NCBI GenBank assembly: GCA_041661305.1
Contig: JBAZUR010000002.1
Span: 76,621-110,258, forward strand
Source: Minisyncoccota bacterium
Lineage (GTDB): Bacteria > Patescibacteriota > Minisyncoccia > Phycocordibacterales > VMEP01
Length of the DNA stretch: 33,638 nucleotides
Direction of reading: 5' to 3'
Shown: positions 14,483-33,525 of the stretch, in pieces
How the letters are laid out: each line of letters opens with the position of its first letter
How positions within the stretch are numbered: position 1 is the stretch's first letter
Program-made: the position numbers and the translations under genes
The notes under the pieces: generated by a model
Database searches by the model: none
Seen by the model: the letters and a program-made list of their open reading frames with translations, nothing else
Told to the model about the DNA's origin: nothing

Positions 14483-17230
14483 ATGGTTTTAAACTTTAAA
14501 GCTGAAGGGCATGAAAAATTCACGACTCCTCAAGAGGAAATTGATTTTTTGCGTGAGCGTTTAGCACACCGAGAGCAAACTGCATCAAGAGAGAAAGAGG
14601 CACCAACAAGAGACATCCCAAAAGAAATAATTAAAGAATATTCCGAAAAACCGGTCGCCGAAGTTCTGCATCCAGAGAAAGTTATGCCAGAACAAGAAGT
14701 TGATCGCATTGTTCTAGAGCTAAAGCCAGAACAACACGATAAACAAATGGAGGAGCTTCTCGGTATCCTTATCGATAAAGGAGCCAGAAATGCTATTTCT
14801 GTCGTGGAGAAGATGGACAACCCTCACCTCACGGATGATTTTCACAGAATACTCGTTCAGTATGTTAAAAGTGCTGGAAAAATTTCAGATTTAGAAAAAG
14901 ATAAACAAGTCTGGAAGGCTATTCATATGCGTCTTTATGAAATTATCCTTCCAGAAGCAACCGGCGAGAACCAAACAAGAGGATTTAAGGAGCTCGTGAC
15001 GACAATGGAACAGTTTTACGCTGGAATGCTCTCTGTTTCAGACGGCCGTGACAATTTTCCTGGTAGAAATTATTTTACACTTGAGATTGCTTTATCAAAT
15101 TGGAGTAGCGAGATAGTTTTTTATGCTTCGGTTTCAGAAGACAAGAGCGAACTTTTAGAAAAACAGTTACTTGGACTATACCCAGAGGCTCGTATTAGAG
15201 AGGTAAAGGACGATTACAATATTTTTAATGAAAATGGCGCTTCTGTTGGGGCGTATGGTGCATTTACAAAAAGTCAGGTCTTCCCAATAAAAACATATGC
15301 AGAATTTGATCACGACCCACTACCAGTTATCCTTAATGTTTTTTCAAAACTTAAAAAGGAGGGGGAAGGTGCAGCGATTCAGTTTTCTATCTCCCCTGTT
15401 GGCGACTACTTTCTAAAAAAATATGGCGGAGTGCTTGATCAATTAAAGCGGGGAATGTCGGCAAAAGACGCGACAGATGTTCCGTATACGGTCGGACAAG
15501 AAGTCGGCAAGTTTGCAAAAGAGCTTTTTATGGGAGTTCCGTCTCCTAAAAAAATTGACGGTAAAGACGTTATTGACGATGAAGCAATAAAACATGTTAC
15601 AGAAAAAATAAGTAGTACGATTGTTAACACAAACATTAGAGTAATTGCCTCAGCTGAAACTACCGCACGAGCCGAAGAAATTTTGGGTGGTCTACAGTCC
15701 GCCTTCAATCAGTTCACAGATACACGTGGTAACGGAATAGAGTTTAAGCAATTAAAGCGTCATGATTTATTAAAACTTTTTCAAGAATTTTCTTATAGGC
15801 TTTTTTCCCAAGACTATCCATTGCCACTAAATTTAAAAGAGCTTACGACTATGTTTCATTTCCCCGAGGAAGTTTCTTCGGCTCCACAGTTGAAACAAGC
15901 CCGTTCGGCGACAGCGCCAGCTCCGCTTGATGCTCCAACCGAAGGAACACTTCTTGGTATAAACAAACACCGCGGAGAGGAGAGGAAAATTTTTGTTACT
16001 AGTGAAGATAGGATGCGCCACTTCTATGTTATTGGTCAAACTGGTACGGGTAAGACAGTAATCTTGAAGAATATGATTATTCAAGATATCAAGGCTGGAC
16101 ACGGTGTATGTATGATTGATCCGCACGGGACAGATATCGAAGATATTTTAGGAAGTATTCCTAGAGAGAGAGAAAAAGACGTTATTTATTTTGATCCAGC
16201 ACACACCGAGCGAGTGATGGGGCTTAATATGCTTGAATATGACCTTGAGAGACCGGAACAGAAGACCTTTGTAGTTAACGAGCTTATTTCTATTTTTAAC
16301 AAATTGTTTGATATGAAGGTGGCTGGTGGACCCGCCTTTGAACAATATTTTAGAAACTCAGCTCTTTTGGTGATGGAGCACCCAGAATCTGGTAATACAC
16401 TTCTTGATATCGTGCGTGTTCTAGCTGATAAATCTTTTAGAGATATGAAATTGTCGTACTGTAACAATCCAGTAGTCACGCAGTTTTGGGCCAATGCAAT
16501 TAAGACTAGTGGGGAACAATCGCTTGCAAACTTTGTTCCGTATATTTCAAGTAAGTTTGACCCATTTTTATCGAACGATATTATGCGTCCGGTTATCGCT
16601 CAAGAAAAATCATCTTTTAATTTCAGACAGATAATGGATGAGCGAAAAATCCTTTTAGTTAACCTGTCAAAAGGAAGACTAGGGGATTTGAATGCGCACC
16701 TGATTGGCCTTATTTTAGTCGGGAAAATCCTTATCGCAGCTCTTTCTCGTGTGGATGCTCTCGGAGAAAAATTAGCCGATTTTTATCTATATGTGGACGA
16801 GTTCCAGAATATTACTACTGATTCTATTTCCACAATTCTTTCTGAGGCGAGAAAATATAGACTATCTCTTAATCTTGCCCACCAGTTCATTGGACAGCTT
16901 GATGAAAAAACAAAAAACGCTGTTTTTGGAAACGTTGGTTCAATGGCACTGTTCCGTGTCGGTAGTGAAGATGCAGAATTTTTAGAGAAACAACTTTCAC
17001 CAATTTTTTCCGCGCGAGATCTAATGAACCTAGACAATTACAACGCATATATGAAGATGTTGATGAAGGGGCAACCGGCAAGAGCCTTTAATATTGAAAC
17101 AATTGCGCCAAGAGCGGGGGACTCATTTGCTGCGGCGAGAATCAAAGAAGCCTCGTATCAAAAATTTGGCGCTCCTCGTGCAGAAGTAGAGGATCATATT
17201 GTTCAAAAGTATCGTCAAACGGGAATCTAG
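14483..17230 (+). CDS. VirD4/TraG/VirB4-like P-loop ATPase (HerA/FtsK superfamily, DUF87-like)
   Basis: RMRHFYVIGQTGTGKT Walker A, YLYVDEFQN Walker B, EARKYRLSLNLAHQ motif; no obvious TM anchor. Confidence 0.88.
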   Translation: MVLNFKAEGHEKFTTPQEEIDFLRERLAHREQTASREKEAPTRDIPKEIIKEYSEKPVAEVLHPEKVMPEQEVDRIVLELKPEQHDKQMEELLGILIDKGARNAISVVEKMDNPHLTDDFHRILVQYVKSAGKISDLEKDKQVWKAIHMRLYEIILPEATGENQTRGFKELVTTMEQFYAGMLSVSDGRDNFPGRNYFTLEIALSNWSSEIVFYASVSEDKSELLEKQLLGLYPEARIREVKDDYNIFNENGASVGAYGAFTKSQVFPIKTYAEFDHDPLPVILNVFSKLKKEGEGAAIQFSISPVGDYFLKKYGGVLDQLKRGMSAKDATDVPYTVGQEVGKFAKELFMGVPSPKKIDGKDVIDDEAIKHVTEKISSTIVNTNIRVIASAETTARAEEILGGLQSAFNQFTDTRGNGIEFKQLKRHDLLKLFQEFSYRLFSQDYPLPLNLKELTTMFHFPEEVSSAPQLKQARSATAPAPLDAPTEGTLLGINKHRGEERKIFVTSEDRMRHFYVIGQTGTGKTVILKNMIIQDIKAGHGVCMIDPHGTDIEDILGSIPREREKDVIYFDPAHTERVMGLNMLEYDLERPEQKTFVVNELISIFNKLFDMKVAGGPAFEQYFRNSALLVMEHPESGNTLLDIVRVLADKSFRDMKLSYCNNPVVTQFWANAIKTSGEQSLANFVPYISSKFDPFLSNDIMRPVIAQEKSSFNFRQIMDERKILLVNLSKGRLGDLNAHLIGLILVGKILIAALSRVDALGEKLADFYLYVDEFQNITTDSISTILSEARKYRLSLNLAHQFIGQLDEKTKNAVFGNVGSMALFRVGSEDAEFLEKQLSPIFSARDLMNLDNYNAYMKMLMKGQPARAFNIETIAPRAGDSFAAARIKEASYQKFGAPRAEVEDHIVQKYRQTGI

Positions 17231-21525: not shown

Positions 21526-21601
21526 TGGTGGACCATACCGGATTCGAACCGGTCGCCTCGTCCATGCCATGGACGCGCTCTACCAAATGAGCTAATGGCC
21601 C
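21526..21601 (-). tRNA. tRNA-Ala(GGC)
   Basis: 76-nt cloverleaf GGGCCAT...ATGGTCCACCA; G3:U70, anticodon loop ATGGCAT (A32-U38), encoded CCA. Confidence 0.97.
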
Positions 21602-22058: not shown

Positions 22059-23477
22059 ATGTACCTTTCAACTCGCGGTAAGGCACCGGCAGTCAATTTC
22101 GCAGACACAGTGCTTGCAGGATTGGCGCCAGACGGAGGGCTATATGTTCCGGAGAAGTTTTTCCGGGCCAATGAGGGAGATTTCCGGCTACACGCCAGCG
22201 GTTCGTATCAGGATGTCGCTCGTTTCGTGATGGAGCAATTTGCTCCCGACATCAATAGGAGCAAACTTTGGGGGGCAATAGCGAAAGCTTATACCCCGGA
22301 GGTCTTCAAGAACGTCGCTGGTCCAGGTTTCGAAGTGGCAAGTGATATTGTTCCGGTGCGCGACCTTGGGCGAGAGATGTATCTTGCCAGGCTGAGCAAT
22401 GGGCCGACTTTGGCGTTCAAGGATTTGCCTCTGCAGTTGCTCGGGCATCTTTTCGAAGTTGTTCTCGGGCGCAACAAGAAGCTCAACCTTCTCGGCGCGA
22501 CCTCGGGGGACACCGGCTCGGCGGCTATTCACGCAATGCTTGGGAGAAAAGGCATCCGTGTCTTTATGCTCTCTCCGCATGGCAAGATGAGCCAGTTTCA
22601 GGCTGCTCAGATTTTGAGCGTCAACGATCCGGCAGTTCACAACATTTCGATTCGCGGGTCGTTCGACGATTGCCAAGATGTGGTCAAGGCGGTCAATGCC
22701 GATGCCGGTTTCAAAGAGATGTACAGCATCGGTGCCGTGAACTCAATCAACTGGGCGCGTATTGCAGCTCAAGTCCCTTACTACTTCTGGGTTTACTCCC
22801 GGGTTCGTGGTGGTGATGGTGGAGTAATCGACGTTGCTGTCCCGACAGGGAACTACGGCAATATTTACGCGGCGTGGGTAGCGAAAATGATGGGGGTGCC
22901 GATTCGTCGGCTGATTCTCGCGACCAACGAAAATGACGTGCTTCACGAGTTTTTCACGACGGGCATTTACAAGCCCCGAGAGAAGACACTCGTGACGTCG
23001 AGTCCTTCGATGGACATCACCAAGGCATCGAATTTCGAACGATTCATCTACGATGTCTTTGGTGGCGATGCGGACAAGGTTTCGAAGTTGTGGAAAGCGC
23101 TCGACAAGTCGGGGCAGTTTGATTTGTCGCACAGGATATCGGCCATTCGGGCGAAGTCCGGCATCACTTCTTTTGCCACGCGTCAGAGGCAGGCGAACGA
23201 AGCAATCTTGCGTATCTTCAATAGCACTGGGGTTATCATCGACCCGCACACTGCGGTCGCGATGTATGCTGCAATCGGCATGAAACATCCGGGAGTGCCG
23301 ATGGTTGTGATGGAAACAGCGCAACCGTGCAAGTTTGATGACGCAGTAAAGAAGGCGCTCGGCCTCACAGCGAAACCGCCGGCCGGCATGGAAGGGCTTT
23401 TGTCCGCTGAAAAGTTCTTCACGCTGATGGATCCCGATCCCGAAAAGGTGAAGGATCTAATCCGTGCCTACGCGTAA
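22059..23477 (+). CDS. thrC: Threonine synthase (long, class II type)
   Basis: YLSTRG, GLAPDGGLYVP, GPTLAFKD (PLP Lys), ATSGDTG, FDDCQD, NSINWARI, VPTGNYG, SPSMDI, IDPHTA; AGAGG SD; GC-richer than flanks. Confidence 0.95.
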   Translation: MYLSTRGKAPAVNFADTVLAGLAPDGGLYVPEKFFRANEGDFRLHASGSYQDVARFVMEQFAPDINRSKLWGAIAKAYTPEVFKNVAGPGFEVASDIVPVRDLGREMYLARLSNGPTLAFKDLPLQLLGHLFEVVLGRNKKLNLLGATSGDTGSAAIHAMLGRKGIRVFMLSPHGKMSQFQAAQILSVNDPAVHNISIRGSFDDCQDVVKAVNADAGFKEMYSIGAVNSINWARIAAQVPYYFWVYSRVRGGDGGVIDVAVPTGNYGNIYAAWVAKMMGVPIRRLILATNENDVLHEFFTTGIYKPREKTLVTSSPSMDITKASNFERFIYDVFGGDADKVSKLWKALDKSGQFDLSHRISAIRAKSGITSFATRQRQANEAILRIFNSTGVIIDPHTAVAMYAAIGMKHPGVPMVVMETAQPCKFDDAVKKALGLTAKPPAGMEGLLSAEKFFTLMDPDPEKVKDLIRAYA

Positions 23478-25057: not shown

Positions 25058-25203
25058 ATGGGGGTGTCGGTCACGAGTATTTTTTATACCGTCGTATAAA
25101 AAATCTCTCGACCCCAGCTCGCCATTTTGTCTGCTGACAAAATAGGGCTGCGCTTTTCAATTCCCCCGCGCGAGCAAAGCAGTTTGCTCGCTCATCTCCA
25201 CCA
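25058..25203 (+). repeat. Palindromic element copy A with inverted copy of the tmRNA 3' end
   Basis: tcggtcacg...cgacccc core; ttcaattccccc[25 nt]catctccacca (25156-25203) mirrors the tmRNA T arm and acceptor end. Confidence 0.85.
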
Positions 25204-26238: not shown

Positions 26239-26400
26239 GTCGCGCGTCAATGGACGGTCGCGCGACATGATTTCGTCTAAATCATATACTCGCATTACGC
26301 ATAATTTCTTGCTAAAAATTTGCGCGACCCCGACTCGGCTCGCCAGCCTCCGCCTCTCAATTGCTTCACATGTCGCAATTGAGCATCGCGCTCCGTAATG
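26239..26400 (+). repeat. Palindromic element copy B plus adjoining hairpins
   Basis: aatttct-TGCT-aaaaatt hairpin then cgacccc as in copies A and D; 7-bp terminal IR cattacg/cgtaatg (26293-26400); extra stems at 26239-26266, 26267-26285 and ctcaattgc/gcaattgag. Confidence 0.75.
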
Positions 26401-29108: not shown

Positions 29109-30113
29109 TTATTTTGATATTTTATTTAATCTCTCCTCAATCAAATCTATTTTTCCACTGACGTTTTGATAGTGTGATTTTTTAGAAGCATAGAATTCAT
29201 AATCCCTTTTGGTGTGAGAATCACCACCACCACTTTCTAGTGCTTTATATTTTTTGATCAGCTTTTTGAGCATCTCCTGCTCTTCTTTTACTTCCTTCTT
29301 ATACTTTCCTTTGATTCCCAAACCATAAGTTGTTTCAAGCCCATCAATACGTTTTTGCTTGAGCAATTTTTCTACAAGCTTTGGAGGTACTTCTCTTCTT
29401 GTTGTGAAATAGTGAGCAATGAAAGCTAAACCTCCAGCATTTCGAATTAGAGTGACTGCCTCGTCTAAATCCGGCTTATCATCTATTTCAACAGAACATG
29501 GTTTGAAAGCGTGGTGTCCCAAAAAAAGACTATATGGATATTGGTACTCCCCAATAGACATCATCAAATCATATTCTTTTTTTATTTTCTCATTAGTCTT
29601 TGAGGCCTCTTTCATTTCCTCAATAGATTTTTTGAATATGGTTAAGTTTTTCTTTTTTGAAAGAAGAACAGAGACAATATGTGGTTTGCCAACGGTTCCT
29701 TCTCCAGCTTTACGGAGGCATTCTTCCGGGGTAATAGAGAGACTGTATTTCTGAAGACGAAGAACGGTTTTCTTCATTCGACTAATTCTCATTTTTGTTT
29801 GTTTATCAACAAAAGAACGAAGTTTTTTATTTTTTGGATCAACAAAAAGCCCGATTACGTGGAGGGTTCCATCGCCGTTTGTGGCGTCTTTGGGGTGTTC
29901 GGCAGAAATTTCAATACCCAAGATTGCTCGCACATCTCCTTTGTATTTATTTAGAAAGGAGATTGTTTTTTCACTCGGCAAGACATCATGGTCTGTGAAC
30001 GCTAGCGTTTTATACCCAAGCTTTTCGGCGAGCGATAAAACTTCTTTGTGGCTTAACGCTCCGTCTGAGATTTTTGTGTGATTATGAAGTGATTCGATTT
30101 GTCGTTTTTTCAT
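29109..30113 (-). CDS. PHP-family metal-dependent phosphoesterase (YciV/TrpH-like)
   Basis: HNHTKISDG, AFTDHD, GIEIS, HVIG, KPH, AHY and GGDSH metal ligands. Confidence 0.88.
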   Translation of the reverse strand: MKKRQIESLHNHTKISDGALSHKEVLSLAEKLGYKTLAFTDHDVLPSEKTISFLNKYKGDVRAILGIEISAEHPKDATNGDGTLHVIGLFVDPKNKKLRSFVDKQTKMRISRMKKTVLRLQKYSLSITPEECLRKAGEGTVGKPHIVSVLLSKKKNLTIFKKSIEEMKEASKTNEKIKKEYDLMMSIGEYQYPYSLFLGHHAFKPCSVEIDDKPDLDEAVTLIRNAGGLAFIAHYFTTRREVPPKLVEKLLKQKRIDGLETTYGLGIKGKYKKEVKEEQEMLKKLIKKYKALESGGGDSHTKRDYEFYASKKSHYQNVSGKIDLIEERLNKISK

Positions 30114-30174
30114 TTTGTGTATTTTCTGAGTCGCCAGTATAGCATATGTGAATATGTTGATTTCGACTCTTTAC

Positions 30175-30203
30175 TTGAACTGTTTGCTCTAAAAATGTAG
30201 ACT
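30175..30203 (+). promoter_or_regulatory. Putative promoter of the tRNA-Ile locus
   Basis: TTGAAC-17nt-TAGACT ending 27 nt before the interrupted tRNA copy. Confidence 0.6.
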
Positions 30204-30240
30204 TCATCCGTGGCTGATTGAAAATATGCGTCCGTCCTTA

Positions 30241-30278
30241 CCCGCCCGAATGGAACGAGCCCGCTCGGTACGGGCGGG
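30241..30278. mobile_element. 38-nt miniature hairpin insertion at TTA^G
   Basis: cccgcccg...cgggcggg terminal inverted repeat; absent from the intact tRNA copy. Confidence 0.8.
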
Positions 30279-30291
30279 GCTCAGTTGGTTA

Positions 30292-30327
30292 CCTGCCCGA
30301 ACGACTGGAATCGTTCAGTCGGGCGGG
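30292..30327. mobile_element. 36-nt miniature hairpin insertion at TTA^G
   Basis: cctgcccga...tcgggcggg terminal inverted repeat; same target context as the 30241 insertion. Confidence 0.8.
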
Positions 30328-30422
30328 GAGCACAGAGCTTATAAATGGCAACGAGGAATAAGTGGAAGTTTACTTACATTTAGGCCGAGTGAACCGTTTA
30401 TATGAATTGAAAATTTCATAGT

Positions 30423-30496
30423 CCGTCCTTAGCTCAGTTGGTTAGAGCACAGAGCTTATACCTCTGCGGTCCCTGGTTCGAATCCAGGAGGACGGA
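30423..30496 (+). tRNA. tRNA-Ile(UAU), CCA not encoded
   Basis: Cloverleaf CCGTCCT/AGGACGG, D stem GCTC/GAGC, anticodon arm CAGAG-CTTATAC-CTCTG, T arm CCTGG-TTCGAAT-CCAGG, A73. Confidence 0.93.
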
Positions 30497-30515
30497 CTAT
30501 GAAATAAATCATATC

Positions 30516-30539
30516 CCTCTGCGGTCCCTGGTTCGAATC
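30516..30539 (+). pseudogene. 3' fragment (from C38 through the T loop) of tRNA-Ile(UAU)
   Basis: cctctgcggtccctggttcgaatc identical to 30461-30484. Confidence 0.92.
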
Positions 30540-30553
30540 AGAAAAAAACAACC

Positions 30554-32713
30554 CTACTCAAAGTGTATCGTCGCTGTTTTTTCTGCCAATTTTTCTTTTA
30601 GTGCAGGATACTTAGAGATTTTATTTTCAAGAATAATTTTTTTAGCTTCTTCTCGCGCAGCCTCCACCATTTTCAGATTTTTCAGCGCTTCCATTCCTAT
30701 ATCAGAAAGACCCCACTGTTTTCCGCCAGATAATTCCCCTGGGCCACGCAGTTTCAAATCAAGCTCAGCAAGTTCAAATCCATTTTTTGCTTCTGTAATT
30801 GCTTTTAGTCTTGCTTTTGATTTTTCACCATCTGACTCTGGGAAGAGATAGCAGTACGACTGATGATTGCTTCTTTGCACACGCCCGCGAAGTTGATGGA
30901 GTTGAGCAAGACCGAACCGTTCTGCGCCCTCGATAATAATAGAAGTGGCATTTGGAATATTGACGCCAACTTCAATAACAGAAGTAGCAACAAGAATATG
31001 TATTTTACCAGCAAGGAAATCATCCATTACCTTGTCGCGAGCTTCACGCTTCATTTTGCTGTGAATGATACCGATTACCGAATCGGGGAAAACACTTTTC
31101 TTTAAGCGCTTCGCTTCGGCTATTACTGATTTTGCGTTTAGTGCCATAGCCTTATCAGGATCCGGTTCGTCTATACGAGGACAAATAATATAGGCCTGTC
31201 TTCCGCTTGTGATTTCCTCTTTTATTTTTTCGTAGACTTTATCGCGTTTTCCTTTGGTGACGATTTCGGTTATGACCTGTTTTCGTCCAGCCGGCATTTC
31301 GTCGATAAGAGTTAGGTCGAGGTCGCCATAGACCGTGAGTGCAAGTGTGCGGGGGATTGGAGTTGCTGTCATAGAAAGAAGATGTGGTGCGAAGTCATCT
31401 TTGCGAGCAAGCTTCATTCTTTGGTTTGTGCCGAAGCGATGTTGTTCATCAATAATAACGAGACCTAATCTTTTAAAAGAAACACTTTTTTGGATTAAGG
31501 CGTGCGTTCCAATCACAATTGGAATTTCTCCATTGGCTACCCATTTTAAAAATTGAGTTCGTGAAATATCAGTCCAAGAGCTTGGGTTGACCTTTGATGG
31601 AAATTTTCTACATCCAGAGCCGGTGATTAATCCGACAGCAATATTCATATGGGTGAAATATTTAATGAATGATTCGAAATGTTGAGAGGCCAATATTTCT
31701 GTTGGTGCCATGTAGGCCACTTGAAGTCGCGCGGCGCGGTTGTCTTTTGGGCTTGTGGAGATTACGGCGTAAGAAGCAGTTGCGGCAACAGCTGTTTTGC
31801 CTGAGCCAACGTCACCTTCAAGTAGTCGGGACATTGGTTTCCCGCTTTTGAAGTCTTCTAAAATATCTTTAACTGCGTTATTTTGCGCGAGAGTTGCTTC
31901 AAATGGGAAGCGCTCAATAAAAGTACGCACTTCTTTTTCACTAGGTTCAATGACGAAAGAACTATTTTTTTCAAATTCAAATTTTGCTTGTTGTCTTTGG
32001 AGTTGAATAAAAAATACTTCTTCAAAAGCAAAACGTTTGCGTGCGGCGGAAGCGTGAGATTCGTTTTTTGGATTGTGGATAAAGATAAGAGCGTCTTTGA
32101 GTGGGGGAAGTTTGTAGTGCGCCAAAATTTCATTTGGAATAGGGTCTTCCAATGTATCCAAAAAACTTGCTTGCAAAAGTTTTTTTATTGAGTGCTGGAA
32201 CCACAAAGAAGAGATTCCTTTACTCTCCTCGTATACGGGAATCATGCTCTCTGTCATTACCGATTCTCCCAAAAGTCCGTTTTGAAGAGGGAGTTCCGCA
32301 ACACGTTCAATGTCTGGGTTGGCGAGATATTTTGAGCCATTTCTTTCTGTAACAGTCCCGCTAACTCTCACCGAAGATTCAGCTGGAATCATTTTTGCCA
32401 GATATGGCTGATTGAACCAAACTATTTTTATTGACCCAGTGTGGTCGGTTAGGGTCCCTTCAGCCATCGGGATTTTCTTTCGAAAAGCTTTACTTGTTTT
32501 GAGGTTGGTTAGTTTGCCAAAAAAGATGACACGGTCACCAGAGCGCGAGGAGAGAATAGCTTGCGAGGAACCAAAGTCTATATATCGCGAAGGTAAATGA
32601 TAGAGAAGATCTCGGACGGTTGTTAGATTTAGTTTAGTTAGGGCCTCTTTTTGCTCTTGTTTTAGTTTAAACAAAGAGGTAATTGGCGTTTTTTCTTCAA
32701 AGGATGGTTGCAT
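30554..32713 (-). CDS. recG: ATP-dependent DNA helicase RecG
   Basis: Wedge/OB region VWFNQPYL, RLLEGDVGSGKT, MAPTEILA, IIDEQHRFG, MTATPIPRTL, ERFGLAQLHQLRGRV, DLKLRGPGE. Confidence 0.98.
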   Translation of the reverse strand: MQPSFEEKTPITSLFKLKQEQKEALTKLNLTTVRDLLYHLPSRYIDFGSSQAILSSRSGDRVIFFGKLTNLKTSKAFRKKIPMAEGTLTDHTGSIKIVWFNQPYLAKMIPAESSVRVSGTVTERNGSKYLANPDIERVAELPLQNGLLGESVMTESMIPVYEESKGISSLWFQHSIKKLLQASFLDTLEDPIPNEILAHYKLPPLKDALIFIHNPKNESHASAARKRFAFEEVFFIQLQRQQAKFEFEKNSSFVIEPSEKEVRTFIERFPFEATLAQNNAVKDILEDFKSGKPMSRLLEGDVGSGKTAVAATASYAVISTSPKDNRAARLQVAYMAPTEILASQHFESFIKYFTHMNIAVGLITGSGCRKFPSKVNPSSWTDISRTQFLKWVANGEIPIVIGTHALIQKSVSFKRLGLVIIDEQHRFGTNQRMKLARKDDFAPHLLSMTATPIPRTLALTVYGDLDLTLIDEMPAGRKQVITEIVTKGKRDKVYEKIKEEITSGRQAYIICPRIDEPDPDKAMALNAKSVIAEAKRLKKSVFPDSVIGIIHSKMKREARDKVMDDFLAGKIHILVATSVIEVGVNIPNATSIIIEGAERFGLAQLHQLRGRVQRSNHQSYCYLFPESDGEKSKARLKAITEAKNGFELAELDLKLRGPGELSGGKQWGLSDIGMEALKNLKMVEAAREEAKKIILENKISKYPALKEKLAEKTATIHFE

Positions 32714-33398: not shown

Positions 33399-33525
33399 CG
33401 GAGACGGTGGTTCGGTCACGGATATTTTTCTGCTGAAAAATTCCGCGACCCCGCCTCGCGCCGTCGCGCTCCGGCCTTCGAATCCCACACGCGAGCAAAG
33501 CAGTTTGCTCGCTCGTCTCCGTTTT
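33399..33525 (+). repeat. Palindromic element copy D with inverted and direct copies of the tRNA-Ser 3' end
   Basis: cggagacggtgg (33399-33410) repeats 33542-33553; ttcgaatcccac[25 nt]cgtctccgtttt (33477-33525) mirrors the tRNA end; TGCT and CGTC hairpins in between. Confidence 0.88.

Follow-up and report, generated by a model that had tools for sequence, protein, structure and literature searches.

An intact tRNA-Ile(UAU) gene nested in a broken copy of itself in a Paceibacteria genome: a candidate gene-less cassette with a conserved hairpin

How does an intact tRNA gene come to lie inside a broken copy of itself? The question is raised by a tRNA-Ile(UAU) locus between a PHP-domain gene and recG in the window, the whole stretch of 33,638 nucleotides (nt) analysed here, which its RecG relatives place in a genome of the Paceibacteria (Patescibacteria, or Candidate Phyla Radiation, CPR). 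The inner gene of this locus, called by ARAGORN and matched over its full length by the Rfam tRNA model (69.6 bits), is presumably the working one. Parts of it are repeated on the same strand on both flanks, with 11, 13 and 16 nt upstream at 100% identity and 27/28 nt downstream according to a repeat finder; the local-alignment scores of these self-copies are 32 upstream and 51 downstream, and shuffled flanks gave at most 26. The nesting reported in a preliminary description of this DNA is borne out by the gene calls, by the flanking self-copies and by two further assemblies. The answer that we favour, as a little short of an even chance, is that a small cassette carrying its own tRNA and no recombinase inserted site-specifically into the anticodon loop of a resident gene, whose outer remains are decaying. 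The parts of the locus are listed below with tRNA position numbers; handles of the type L004 denote loci of the comparative set.

30423-30496/7, plus strand: intact inner tRNA-Ile(UAU) gene
30196-30229, plus strand: upstream block including the outer leader, conserved with relatives
30196-30203, plus strand: extended -10-like element TGTAGACT, recognised by eye from conservation with relatives
30215-30229, plus strand: outer leader TGATTGAAAATATGC, the same as the tRNA-Ile leader in L002-L004
30230-30343, plus strand: outer tRNA-Ile 5' piece, whole span, three blocks split by two GC-rich hairpins
30230-30240, plus strand: outer 5' block 1, GT and positions 1-9 (-2 to 9), 11/11 identical to 30421-30431
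30241-30278, plus strand: hp1, a GC-rich palindromic insertion (G family) of 38 nt at 9/10, an inverted repeat
30279-30291, plus strand: outer 5' block 2, positions 10-21, 13/13 identical to 30432-30444
30292-30327, plus strand: hp2, a GC-rich palindromic insertion (G family) of 36 nt at 21/22, with a related hairpin at the L004 site
30328-30343, plus strand: outer 5' block 3, positions 22-37, 16/16 identical to 30445-30460
30338-30343, plus strand: left copy of the duplicated core CTTATA, at the end of block 3
30340-30402, plus strand: hairpin H, from fold and covariance model
30340-30348 with 30394-30402, plus strand: P1 stem of H, TATAAATGG with CCGTTTATA, beginning with the anticodon bases TATA (U34-A37)
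30349-30356 and 30385-30393, plus strand: core of H, CAACGAGG and CCGAGTGAA, with tandem G.A pairs
30405-30422, plus strand: inner leader, of which the last 10 nt pair with the trailer
30497-30509, plus strand: inner trailer and linker CTATGAAATAAAT, pairing with the leader
30510-30539, plus strand: outer 3' piece, positions 32-61, with 27/28 identity from TAT onward (30512-30539 = positions 34-61)
start of 30510-30539, plus strand: degenerate right core copy CATATC (CTTATA in L093)
29109-30113, minus strand: PHP-domain gene, upstream neighbour of the locus
30554-32713, minus strand: recG, the other neighbour

The nested layout is real, being the same in three assemblies. Over 30100-30451 a Logan contig of SRR18595301 (L001) does not differ from the window, and metagenome contig ORJL010184228.1 (L093), with flanks ~98% identical, repeats the layout with single-nucleotide polymorphisms of its own. 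The concern about misassembly voiced in the preliminary description is answered by these concordant independent assemblies, which the nest survives.

The upstream part of the broken copy ends at A37 (30343), as described before, but it is not contiguous, consisting of three blocks and two inserted hairpins, hp1 and hp2. Both hairpins are of the form CCyGCCCG...CGGGCGGG, and CGGGCGGG is confined to the tRNA-Ile locus within the window. These two insertions, and the conserved hairpin H that fills most of the supposed spacer, had been overlooked. The outer 3' piece ends at 30539, 14 nt short of the recG stop codon. The outer copy is without positions 62-76, ending in the T loop with no 3' strand of the T stem and, as had been stated correctly, none of the acceptor stem. 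Between the outer halves lies a non-coding insert of ~172 bp (30344-30515), which comprises H, the bracketed tRNA-Ile and a short linker.

The junction had been described as a break at 37/38 with no overlap and no gap, and the lack of a duplicated core had been taken to set it apart from the products of integrases. Neither statement holds. In the window the downstream copy aligns from TAT (position 34) or, by eye, from C32 (30510) with two mismatches, CATATCC versus CTTATAC. The corresponding piece of L093 opens with an intact loop copy, C-TTATAC-CTCTG, and the two outer pieces there have an overlap of 6 nt (CTTATA), those of other genomes one of TATA. It is the two point changes of the window (CATATCC) that make its junction mimic a flush cut at 37/38. 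The duplicated core at the junctions is only 4-6 nt long (CTTATA in L093, TATA elsewhere), because the insert brings a whole tRNA gene.

Which copy is the older is suggested by the three closest genomes, L002, L003 and L004, whose RecG proteins are 90-91% identical to that of the window; a look-up of the latter for an exact match gave no record. In L002 and L003 the interval between the PHP-domain gene and recG contains one tRNA-Ile only, and in L002-L004 the tRNA-Ile leader matches without a difference the 17 nt in front of the outer 5' piece of the window (TGATTGAAAATATGCGT). The leader of the inner tRNA-Ile differs from TGATTGAAAATATGCGT; thus, judged by the leaders, the outer pieces appear to be the older resident gene, at the ancestral position, and the inner gene appears to have come later. 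Upstream of its tRNA-Ile, L004 also carries a 5' piece ending CTTATAA, with a GC hairpin at 21/22 in the opposite orientation. The conserved block at 30196-30203 is a putative promoter region of the outer piece. The earlier statement that the best promoter points into the broken copy was not reproduced, since a simple sigma-70 scan gave no plus-strand promoter at the nested locus and the -10-like block was recognised only by eye. The preliminary description had proposed that the resident gene was cut in its anticodon loop and rescued by a cassette, possibly after attack by an anticodon nuclease and repair. The succession of an older outer and a later inner copy supports the first part, while nothing in the data calls for such nucleases. 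Anticodon nucleases cut RNA, not genes.

The arrangement is not peculiar to the window. The comparative set, gathered through linkage to recG and amounting to ~0.95 Mb, is a sample and not a census; within it, each tRNA-Ile(UAU) of 68 recG-linked loci was aligned to its own 400-nt flanks, with a score of at least 26 as the threshold for a self-copy (false-positive rate from shuffles, 0.07% per flank). A significant same-strand partial self-copy was found in 15/68 loci, with copies on both sides in 10 (window, L093, L015, L036, L042, L046, L055, L061, L065, and L081), and 53/68 loci have none of these features. Polarity is absolute: the pieces upstream come only from the 5' part of the tRNA, and those downstream only from the 3' part. 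The breaks lie mostly in the anticodon loop, in the window and in most of the nine other nested loci, and T-loop breaks occur in L005 and L017 and at tRNA-Ser and transfer-messenger RNA (tmRNA) genes. The outer 3' half extends through the whole acceptor strand in L065 and L046. Only 5' pieces were found in L004, L037, and L071, and only T-loop 3' pieces in L005 and L017; 3' pieces that begin in the anticodon loop are always accompanied by a 5' piece (9/9). On a neighbour-joining tree of RecG the nested loci are scattered among plain neighbours. The recurrence in nine other loci of a layout broken in the anticodon loop indicates a repeatable event and no accident. The search of other genomes for tRNA halves around an intact copy, suggested at the outset, thus succeeded, and the ordinary tandem duplication with varying breakpoints that had been held out as the contrary case was not met with, as the relatives break at the same point.

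Similarity between the inserts extends to their non-coding parts. The trailer and linker ...AATAAATCA (14 nt) is common to the window and the distant L046, and the non-coding flanks of the inner gene are ~80% alike, by eye, between genomes whose RecG proteins are only ~59% identical.

The most conserved part of the insert is found at its left junction, where every 5' piece reaching position 36/37 runs straight into H, a hairpin of ~65 nt. Its P1 stem is followed by an internal loop with CA on one strand and GAA on the other, by a short helix with tandem G.A/A.G pairs in which ACGAGG is paired with CCGAGU, and by an apical stem carrying CUUACAU (CTTACAT in DNA). H of the window scores 79 bits with the covariance model and has a minimum-free-energy z of -4.1; five instances fold alike, with z from -2.0 to -4.1. 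Across 11 instances P1 pairs with its own partner at 96/99 positions and with the partners of other instances at a mean of 4.0/9, each P1 column showing 4-5 pair types, and the tandem G.A motif is invariant (11/11). The wobbles in H comprise nine G.T on the tRNA-sense strand and no A.C. The tip varies from ~25 nt to ~110 nt, the longest holding the tRNA, and two arrangements can be distinguished. In the first (window, L046, L055, L037, and L071) H is complete and the inner gene comes after it, and in the second (L042, L065, L081, and L061) the inner gene with its leader-trailer helix replaces the tip of H. The pairing halves of H flank the inner gene in the latter four genomes, which shows that the insert entered as a single unit. 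A pattern search for H in metagenomes gave only two matches (L093 and L094). L036 has a second, partial copy of H in tandem. K-turn, hammerhead and box C/D motifs were considered for the H core and rejected by hand for the unsuitable spacing of its G.A pairs and bulges.

A second structural part of the insert is a perfect 17-bp inverted repeat (30413-30429 / 30489-30505), which brackets the inner tRNA-Ile and lengthens its acceptor stem by 10 bp; the tRNA-Ala and tRNA-Ser genes in the window are not extended in this way. Only 15/65 tRNA-Ile genes have a leader-trailer helix of 8 bp or more, namely those at 9 of the 15 loci with self-copies versus 6 of the 50 without (odds ratio 11, Fisher p = 4e-4, uncorrected for phylogeny). 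The bracket is thus strongly associated with self-copies, as a part of the cassette. Helix-bearing genes without self-copies include those of L002 and L003, the plain relatives of the window, which may have lost their outer pieces. The AAGAAC or AGTGAAC that precedes the leader in these two is a possible, weak relic, seen by eye, of the 3' core of H.

Copies of gene ends filled with structured modules also accompany tRNA-Ser(GCU) and tmRNA genes. One of these modules, M, was described by a model of the form ...GAGGCGGGGUCGCGAGAUUUUUC-loop-GAAAAAUACUCGUGAC, which gave 58 matches in ~0.95 Mb, three of them in the window. The features concerned are as follows.

33399-33522, minus strand: shadow unit directly behind tRNA-Ser(GCU), module-filled copies of the 3' end of the gene
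33412-33457, minus strand: module M downstream of tRNA-Ser, 70 bits
25057-25203, minus strand: shadow unit behind tmRNA, module-filled copies of the 3' end of the gene
25067-25120, minus strand: module M downstream of tmRNA, from the M model
26291-26336, minus strand: M-like module between smpB and ftsH, 48 bits, with no recognisable tRNA-like flanks

The order within a shadow unit is an inverted copy of the 3' segment of the gene with its T loop, a 24-nt hairpin K, module M, and a direct copy from the T loop to the 3' end. Behind tRNA-Ser these are the inverted 3'-end copy ACGGAGACG, K (AGCGAGCAAACTGCTTTGCTCGCG), GTGGGATTCGAA, M, and the direct T-loop-to-3'-end copy CCGAACCACCGTCTCCG. Behind tmRNA, TGGTGGAGATG, which reads as the reverse complement of the 3' end of the gene with its CCA, is followed by an identical K, by GGGGGAATTGAA (the reverse complement of the T loop and stem), by M and by a decayed direct copy; all 24 nt of K are the same in the two shadows. 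L004 has two tandem shadow units behind tRNA-Ser, each ending with the last 18-19 nt of the tRNA. In 41 tRNA-Ser(GCU) loci the flanking pieces keep to the polarity seen at tRNA-Ile, with a significant upstream self-copy in nine (a 5' piece in all but one) and a downstream 3' piece in seven. Beyond the end of the window, at L093:277-505, tRNA-Ser is preceded by an identical copy of its own 23-nt leader together with positions 1-18; this piece is followed by ~115 nt of hairpin modules and preceded by another 5' piece, of 10 nt. M-type units occur also behind tRNA-Ile in at least nine loci, and other loop insertions sit in D, variable and T loops. Neither H, M nor K has a family in Rfam, where gathering and permissive scans gave only tRNAs and tmRNA. 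A reading of the inverted copies behind tRNA-Ser as primer-binding sites was discarded, as they match the genomic trailer and not the mature CCA end, and an apparent 160-nt insertion in the tmRNA of L003 proved to be a miscall of the start site.

The insertions hp1 and hp2 belong to a family of GC-rich palindromes, the G family, which is mobile. Its members stand at 9/10 in the window (hp1), in L093 and in a tRNA-Ile relic of L039, and also in L004 (21/22), in the K-module loop of L004 and inside module M of L017. At L079:7047-7085 a 39-nt GC-rich palindrome of the hp1 family lies in-frame in recG and adds 13 residues (PPERTNGSSVRAG) relative to the RecG of the window. The contexts of the hp1/hp2 family are thus unrelated and include a coding gene, as for a miniature palindromic element. 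The hp2 site has turned over at strain level, that of L093 holding an unrelated 29-nt insert; hp1 of L093 differs from that of the window by two substitutions. The presence of two palindromes inside the outer 5' piece points to a tolerated landing pad, that is, to a pseudogene. Rickettsia palindromic elements show such behaviour (PMC1779305), being likewise short palindromes of an AT-rich reduced genome, found in RNA-gene relics and in-frame in a protein gene. The hp1/hp2 family differs in its length of 27-39 nt, as compared to 100-150 bp for the Rickettsia elements, and its copies are few and mostly in tRNA relics or other modules. At L004:4440-4500 the loop of K in a shadow unit behind tRNA-Ser is interrupted by a GC palindrome. 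A conserved GC-capped hairpin, CCCGCCCGCATTCCTCCCCAGACCCCTCCTGCGGGCGGG, found in the same context in three genomes (L005:1297-1335, L009:2977-3015, and L039:2450-2488), may be part of an unannotated RNA gene.

According to the favoured reading, a resident tRNA-Ile(UAU) between the PHP-domain gene and recG would have been split in its anticodon loop by one insert of ~172 bp, with 4-6 nt of the anticodon-loop core (CTTATA) duplicated at its two ends. The working tRNA would come from this insert, and transcription would rely on the upstream region of the old gene. The displaced halves would then have turned into a pseudogene, the 3' half losing positions 62-76 and the 5' half being colonised later by two copies of the mobile GC-rich palindrome. 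By analogy with tRNA-gene islands, integron attC sites and the attP site of CTX phage, the insertion is presumed to depend on a recombinase that acts in trans and whose gene lies elsewhere. After its formation, homologous recombination through the conserved tRNA halves could also carry the nested allele further. If the cassette is mobile, its excised or circular form would read ...GAAATAAATC-TTATA-AATGGCAACG....

Several known systems resemble this scheme in part. In tyrosine-integrase islands (the Islander principle; PMC4383910) crossovers in the anticodon loop and T loop with displaced fragments are the norm, the T stem-loop being the counterpart for the M units. As here, the target is split in one of these loops, a working gene is regenerated from the insert, displaced fragments lie at the ends, the duplicated core is short, and tandem arrays occur. 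The insert described here is unlike islands in its ~172 bp without an integrase or any other gene, in the conserved structured hairpin at its junction, and in an identity block of 4-6 nt, that of islands normally running to the end of the tRNA. As the insert carries a whole tRNA, one event displaces both 5' and 3' fragments, unlike in islands.

Folded sites provide a second parallel. The attP hairpin of CTX phage is forked, with two inverted dif-like sites ~90 nt apart (PMC3089051), and integron attC and CTX attP(+), the latter used by host XerCD, are folded single-strand sites (PMC4792948), conserved in structure and not in sequence and requiring no enzyme of the cassette. H shares with attC and attP an imperfect hairpin with a variable stem, conserved pairing, internal loops and mismatches, a variable tip able to hold a long insert, a strand bias (G.T only) and the lack of a cassette-encoded recombinase. 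The tRNA-Ser and tmRNA shadows, with inverted and direct copies of the 3' segment of the target around a loop of 80-100 nt, resemble CTX attP1/attP2. H is unlike these sites in that inspection revealed neither an RYYYAAC/GTTRRRY pair nor dif-like arms, and in that its target is a tRNA loop, with no IntI gene or known Xer dependence; the folded molecule may moreover be RNA.

A number of observations weigh against the cassette. Both copies in the window carry T4, paired with A69 in the inner gene, and the nearest relatives have C4:G69; this shared state is better explained by an inner gene of local origin, or by gene conversion between the two, than by import. Likewise, the identical leader copy at tRNA-Ser of L093 suggests local duplication. 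The 20 window reading frames scanned contained no integrase, transposase or HUH enzyme, and neither did the 10 scanned in the recG-tRNA gaps of L007, L010, L017, and L037, where only cargo genes were found. In a collection of viral contigs, the 11 pattern matches to H were attributed to chance (low model scores, a GC content of 0.62-0.66 in the only two matches, and no tRNAs), K had no match, and none of the 80 listed out of 115 pattern stretches for M passed the covariance model; BLAST against phages and plasmids gave only generic tRNA similarity to the inner gene. As H, K and M are absent from the viral, phage and plasmid collections searched, the cassette has no known autonomous parent. Known integrative elements are all much larger than the insert, and neither an excised form nor an empty site was observed. 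The junction-proximal stem of H varies in sequence, unlike a recombinase-binding arm, and the sense-strand wobble bias fits RNA as well as single-stranded DNA. Free-standing H instances with other P1 sequences lie in intergenic DNA at L036:12406-12472 and L094:1872-1919. H may be selected purely as RNA.

Taken more broadly, the tRNA-Ile insert could be one of a family of gene-less hairpin mini-cassettes of Paceibacteria (H, M, K, and G) that insert site-specifically into the loops of tRNA and tmRNA genes with an enzyme supplied in trans, a generalisation that we consider possible but doubtful. Such mini-cassettes may carry or regenerate the target gene, which would let the host survive, and build Russian-doll or tandem shells of tRNA relics. 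By analogy, they may be the tRNA-loop counterpart of integron cassettes or Xer-exploiting elements; H would then be a new type of structured site for recombination or processing.

Two other explanations are both considered unlikely, to an equal degree. The first regards the outer pieces as relics of one or two large tRNA-targeting islands at the anticodon loop (one for the 5' part, one for the 3' part), which have been deleted almost entirely. Displaced fragments, anticodon- and T-loop breaks and tandem arrays are all known for islands (PMC4383910), some loci hold only 5' or only T-loop 3' pieces, and variable cargo genes occur in the recG-tRNA gap of some relatives. However, the same compact trimming would be needed in many lineages, as exemplified by the 14-nt ...AATAAATCA in the window and L046. 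The paired H halves around the gene in four genomes indicate a single unit, anticodon-loop 3' pieces never occur without a 5' piece (9/9), and the reading frames scanned contain no integrase. What such islands leave would be att-flanking sequence only, as in remnants of the cis-mobilizable element (CIME) type.

The second supposes local duplication and decay, in which tandem and partial copies, breakpoints in hairpin loops, deletions and gene conversion would have produced the locus with no mobile cassette, H and the other modules being ordinary conserved RNA hairpins that lie there by chance. To the lineage-specific T4:A69 state common to outer and inner copies and the identical leader copy at tRNA-Ser of L093 can be added the repeated trailer-plus-3'-piece units in L055 and the finding of neither an enzyme nor an autonomous parent. 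Tandem copying, on the other hand, cannot give the gene-in-hairpin-in-gene topology of L042, L065, L081, and L061. The absolute polarity with breaks concentrated in the anticodon loop also speaks against it, as do inner flanks ~80% alike, by eye, despite a RecG identity of ~59%.

A third explanation, which we judge improbable and place slightly behind these two, is an intron-like element: the outer tRNA-Ile(UAU) is or was an intron-containing gene whose anticodon paired with P1 of H, the intronless gene arose inside it, and the additional loop insertions are further introns. Eukaryotic tRNA-Ile(UAU) has an intron that pairs with the anticodon, and in bacteria group I introns interrupt the anticodon loops of cyanobacterial tRNA-Leu and Azoarcus tRNA-Ile. 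In agreement with this explanation, the insert lies at or beside the canonical 37/38 site, P1 starts at the anticodon bases U34-A37, covaries and wobbles on the sense strand only, and D, variable and T loops have insertions as well. L065 and L046 have complete outer exons, and in L042 four compensated pairs, by a count made by eye, distinguish the outer stems from the inner. The insert resembles archaeal and eukaryotic tRNA introns in its place at or beside 37/38 (PMC4090602) and in the pairing of the anticodon with the insert, and the tRNA introns of Thermoproteales in the extra insertions at non-canonical loop positions. It is unlike archaeal and eukaryotic introns in the lack of a bulge-helix-bulge, in the bacterial host, in the incomplete interrupted gene and in the intact copy that is always present. 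With bacterial group I intron tRNAs it shares the interrupted anticodon loop, but it matches no group I model, consists of a hairpin and a tRNA, and has in H only ~65 nt as against a minimum of ~200 nt.

Against an intron, no bulge-helix-bulge was found in seven loci, as no allowed splice choice gives a 4-bp central helix together with an inner helix, which confirms the earlier statement on this point. No Rfam intron or ribozyme matched 30100-30600 at E <= 10, and a group I intron would not fit into so short an insert. The interrupted gene never occurs without an intact intronless copy, no intron-only gene emerged from a regex scan of the 14 loci without an intact tRNA-Ile call, and the intron mode of ARAGORN called no outer gene. 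The outer copies are mostly truncated or mispaired, that of the window lacking positions 62-76, and H is also found outside tRNAs. The compensated differences of L042 fit two functional genes of different origin equally well.

Selection of the 5' piece and H within the transcript, as a functional leader or processing scaffold that offers a nuclease entry or prevents mispairing with the inner 3' half, is very unlikely. The structure of H is strongly conserved across distant genomes, H sits between the likely promoter region and the gene, and the long helix of leader and trailer would ensure that the inner gene pairs properly; yet nothing of the kind exists at 53/68 tRNA-Ile loci, the pieces are at visibly different stages of decay, and the hp2 site differs between near-identical strains. 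Finally, an assembly artefact through a collapsed or chimeric repeat has a negligible probability, given three concordant assemblies and the same architecture in nine further loci, even though repeats of 11-28 nt can mislead assemblers.

Two other features of the window deserve mention. The segment 22000-24000, with 52.8% GC versus ~40% elsewhere, contains a threonine synthase gene (22059-23477) and a weak DUF2321-like reading frame and adjoins tRNA-Ala (21526-21601); it is probably acquired DNA. A reading frame of 915 residues (14483-17230) gave weak matches to VirD4/TraG-like type IV secretion coupling proteins and to HerA/FtsK-type ATPases.

Insertions that restore the tRNA gene they enter, with fragments of it left displaced, are known in principle. 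Partial, non-functional copies beside real genes are also described among prokaryotic tRNA gene fragments (PMC9897764); the copies reported here differ in being nested around an intact gene and tied to conserved modules. The literature searched contained no account of nested tRNA genes or H/K/M modules in CPR bacteria, nor of the gene-less size of ~172 bp, a whole tRNA inside the insert, H, the K/M modules or the mobile GC palindrome.

Mobile DNA classically lands in tRNA genes, but the known cases are kilobase elements with their own integrase, which replace one end of a gene only. The units described here are non-coding, folded and ~150-190 bp long, and they are tied to nested or tandem self-copies of tRNA-Ile, tRNA-Ser and tmRNA in about one fifth of the genomes sampled from a major group of uncultured bacteria. 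Tools for tRNA annotation, and island finders guided by displaced tRNA fragments, will be misled by such loci. Should the units be mobile, they would represent a new minimal form of site-specific insertion, implying a trans-acting enzyme. If they act as RNA, H would be a new conserved RNA motif, and the nests would inform how essential single-copy tRNA genes survive disruption in reduced genomes.

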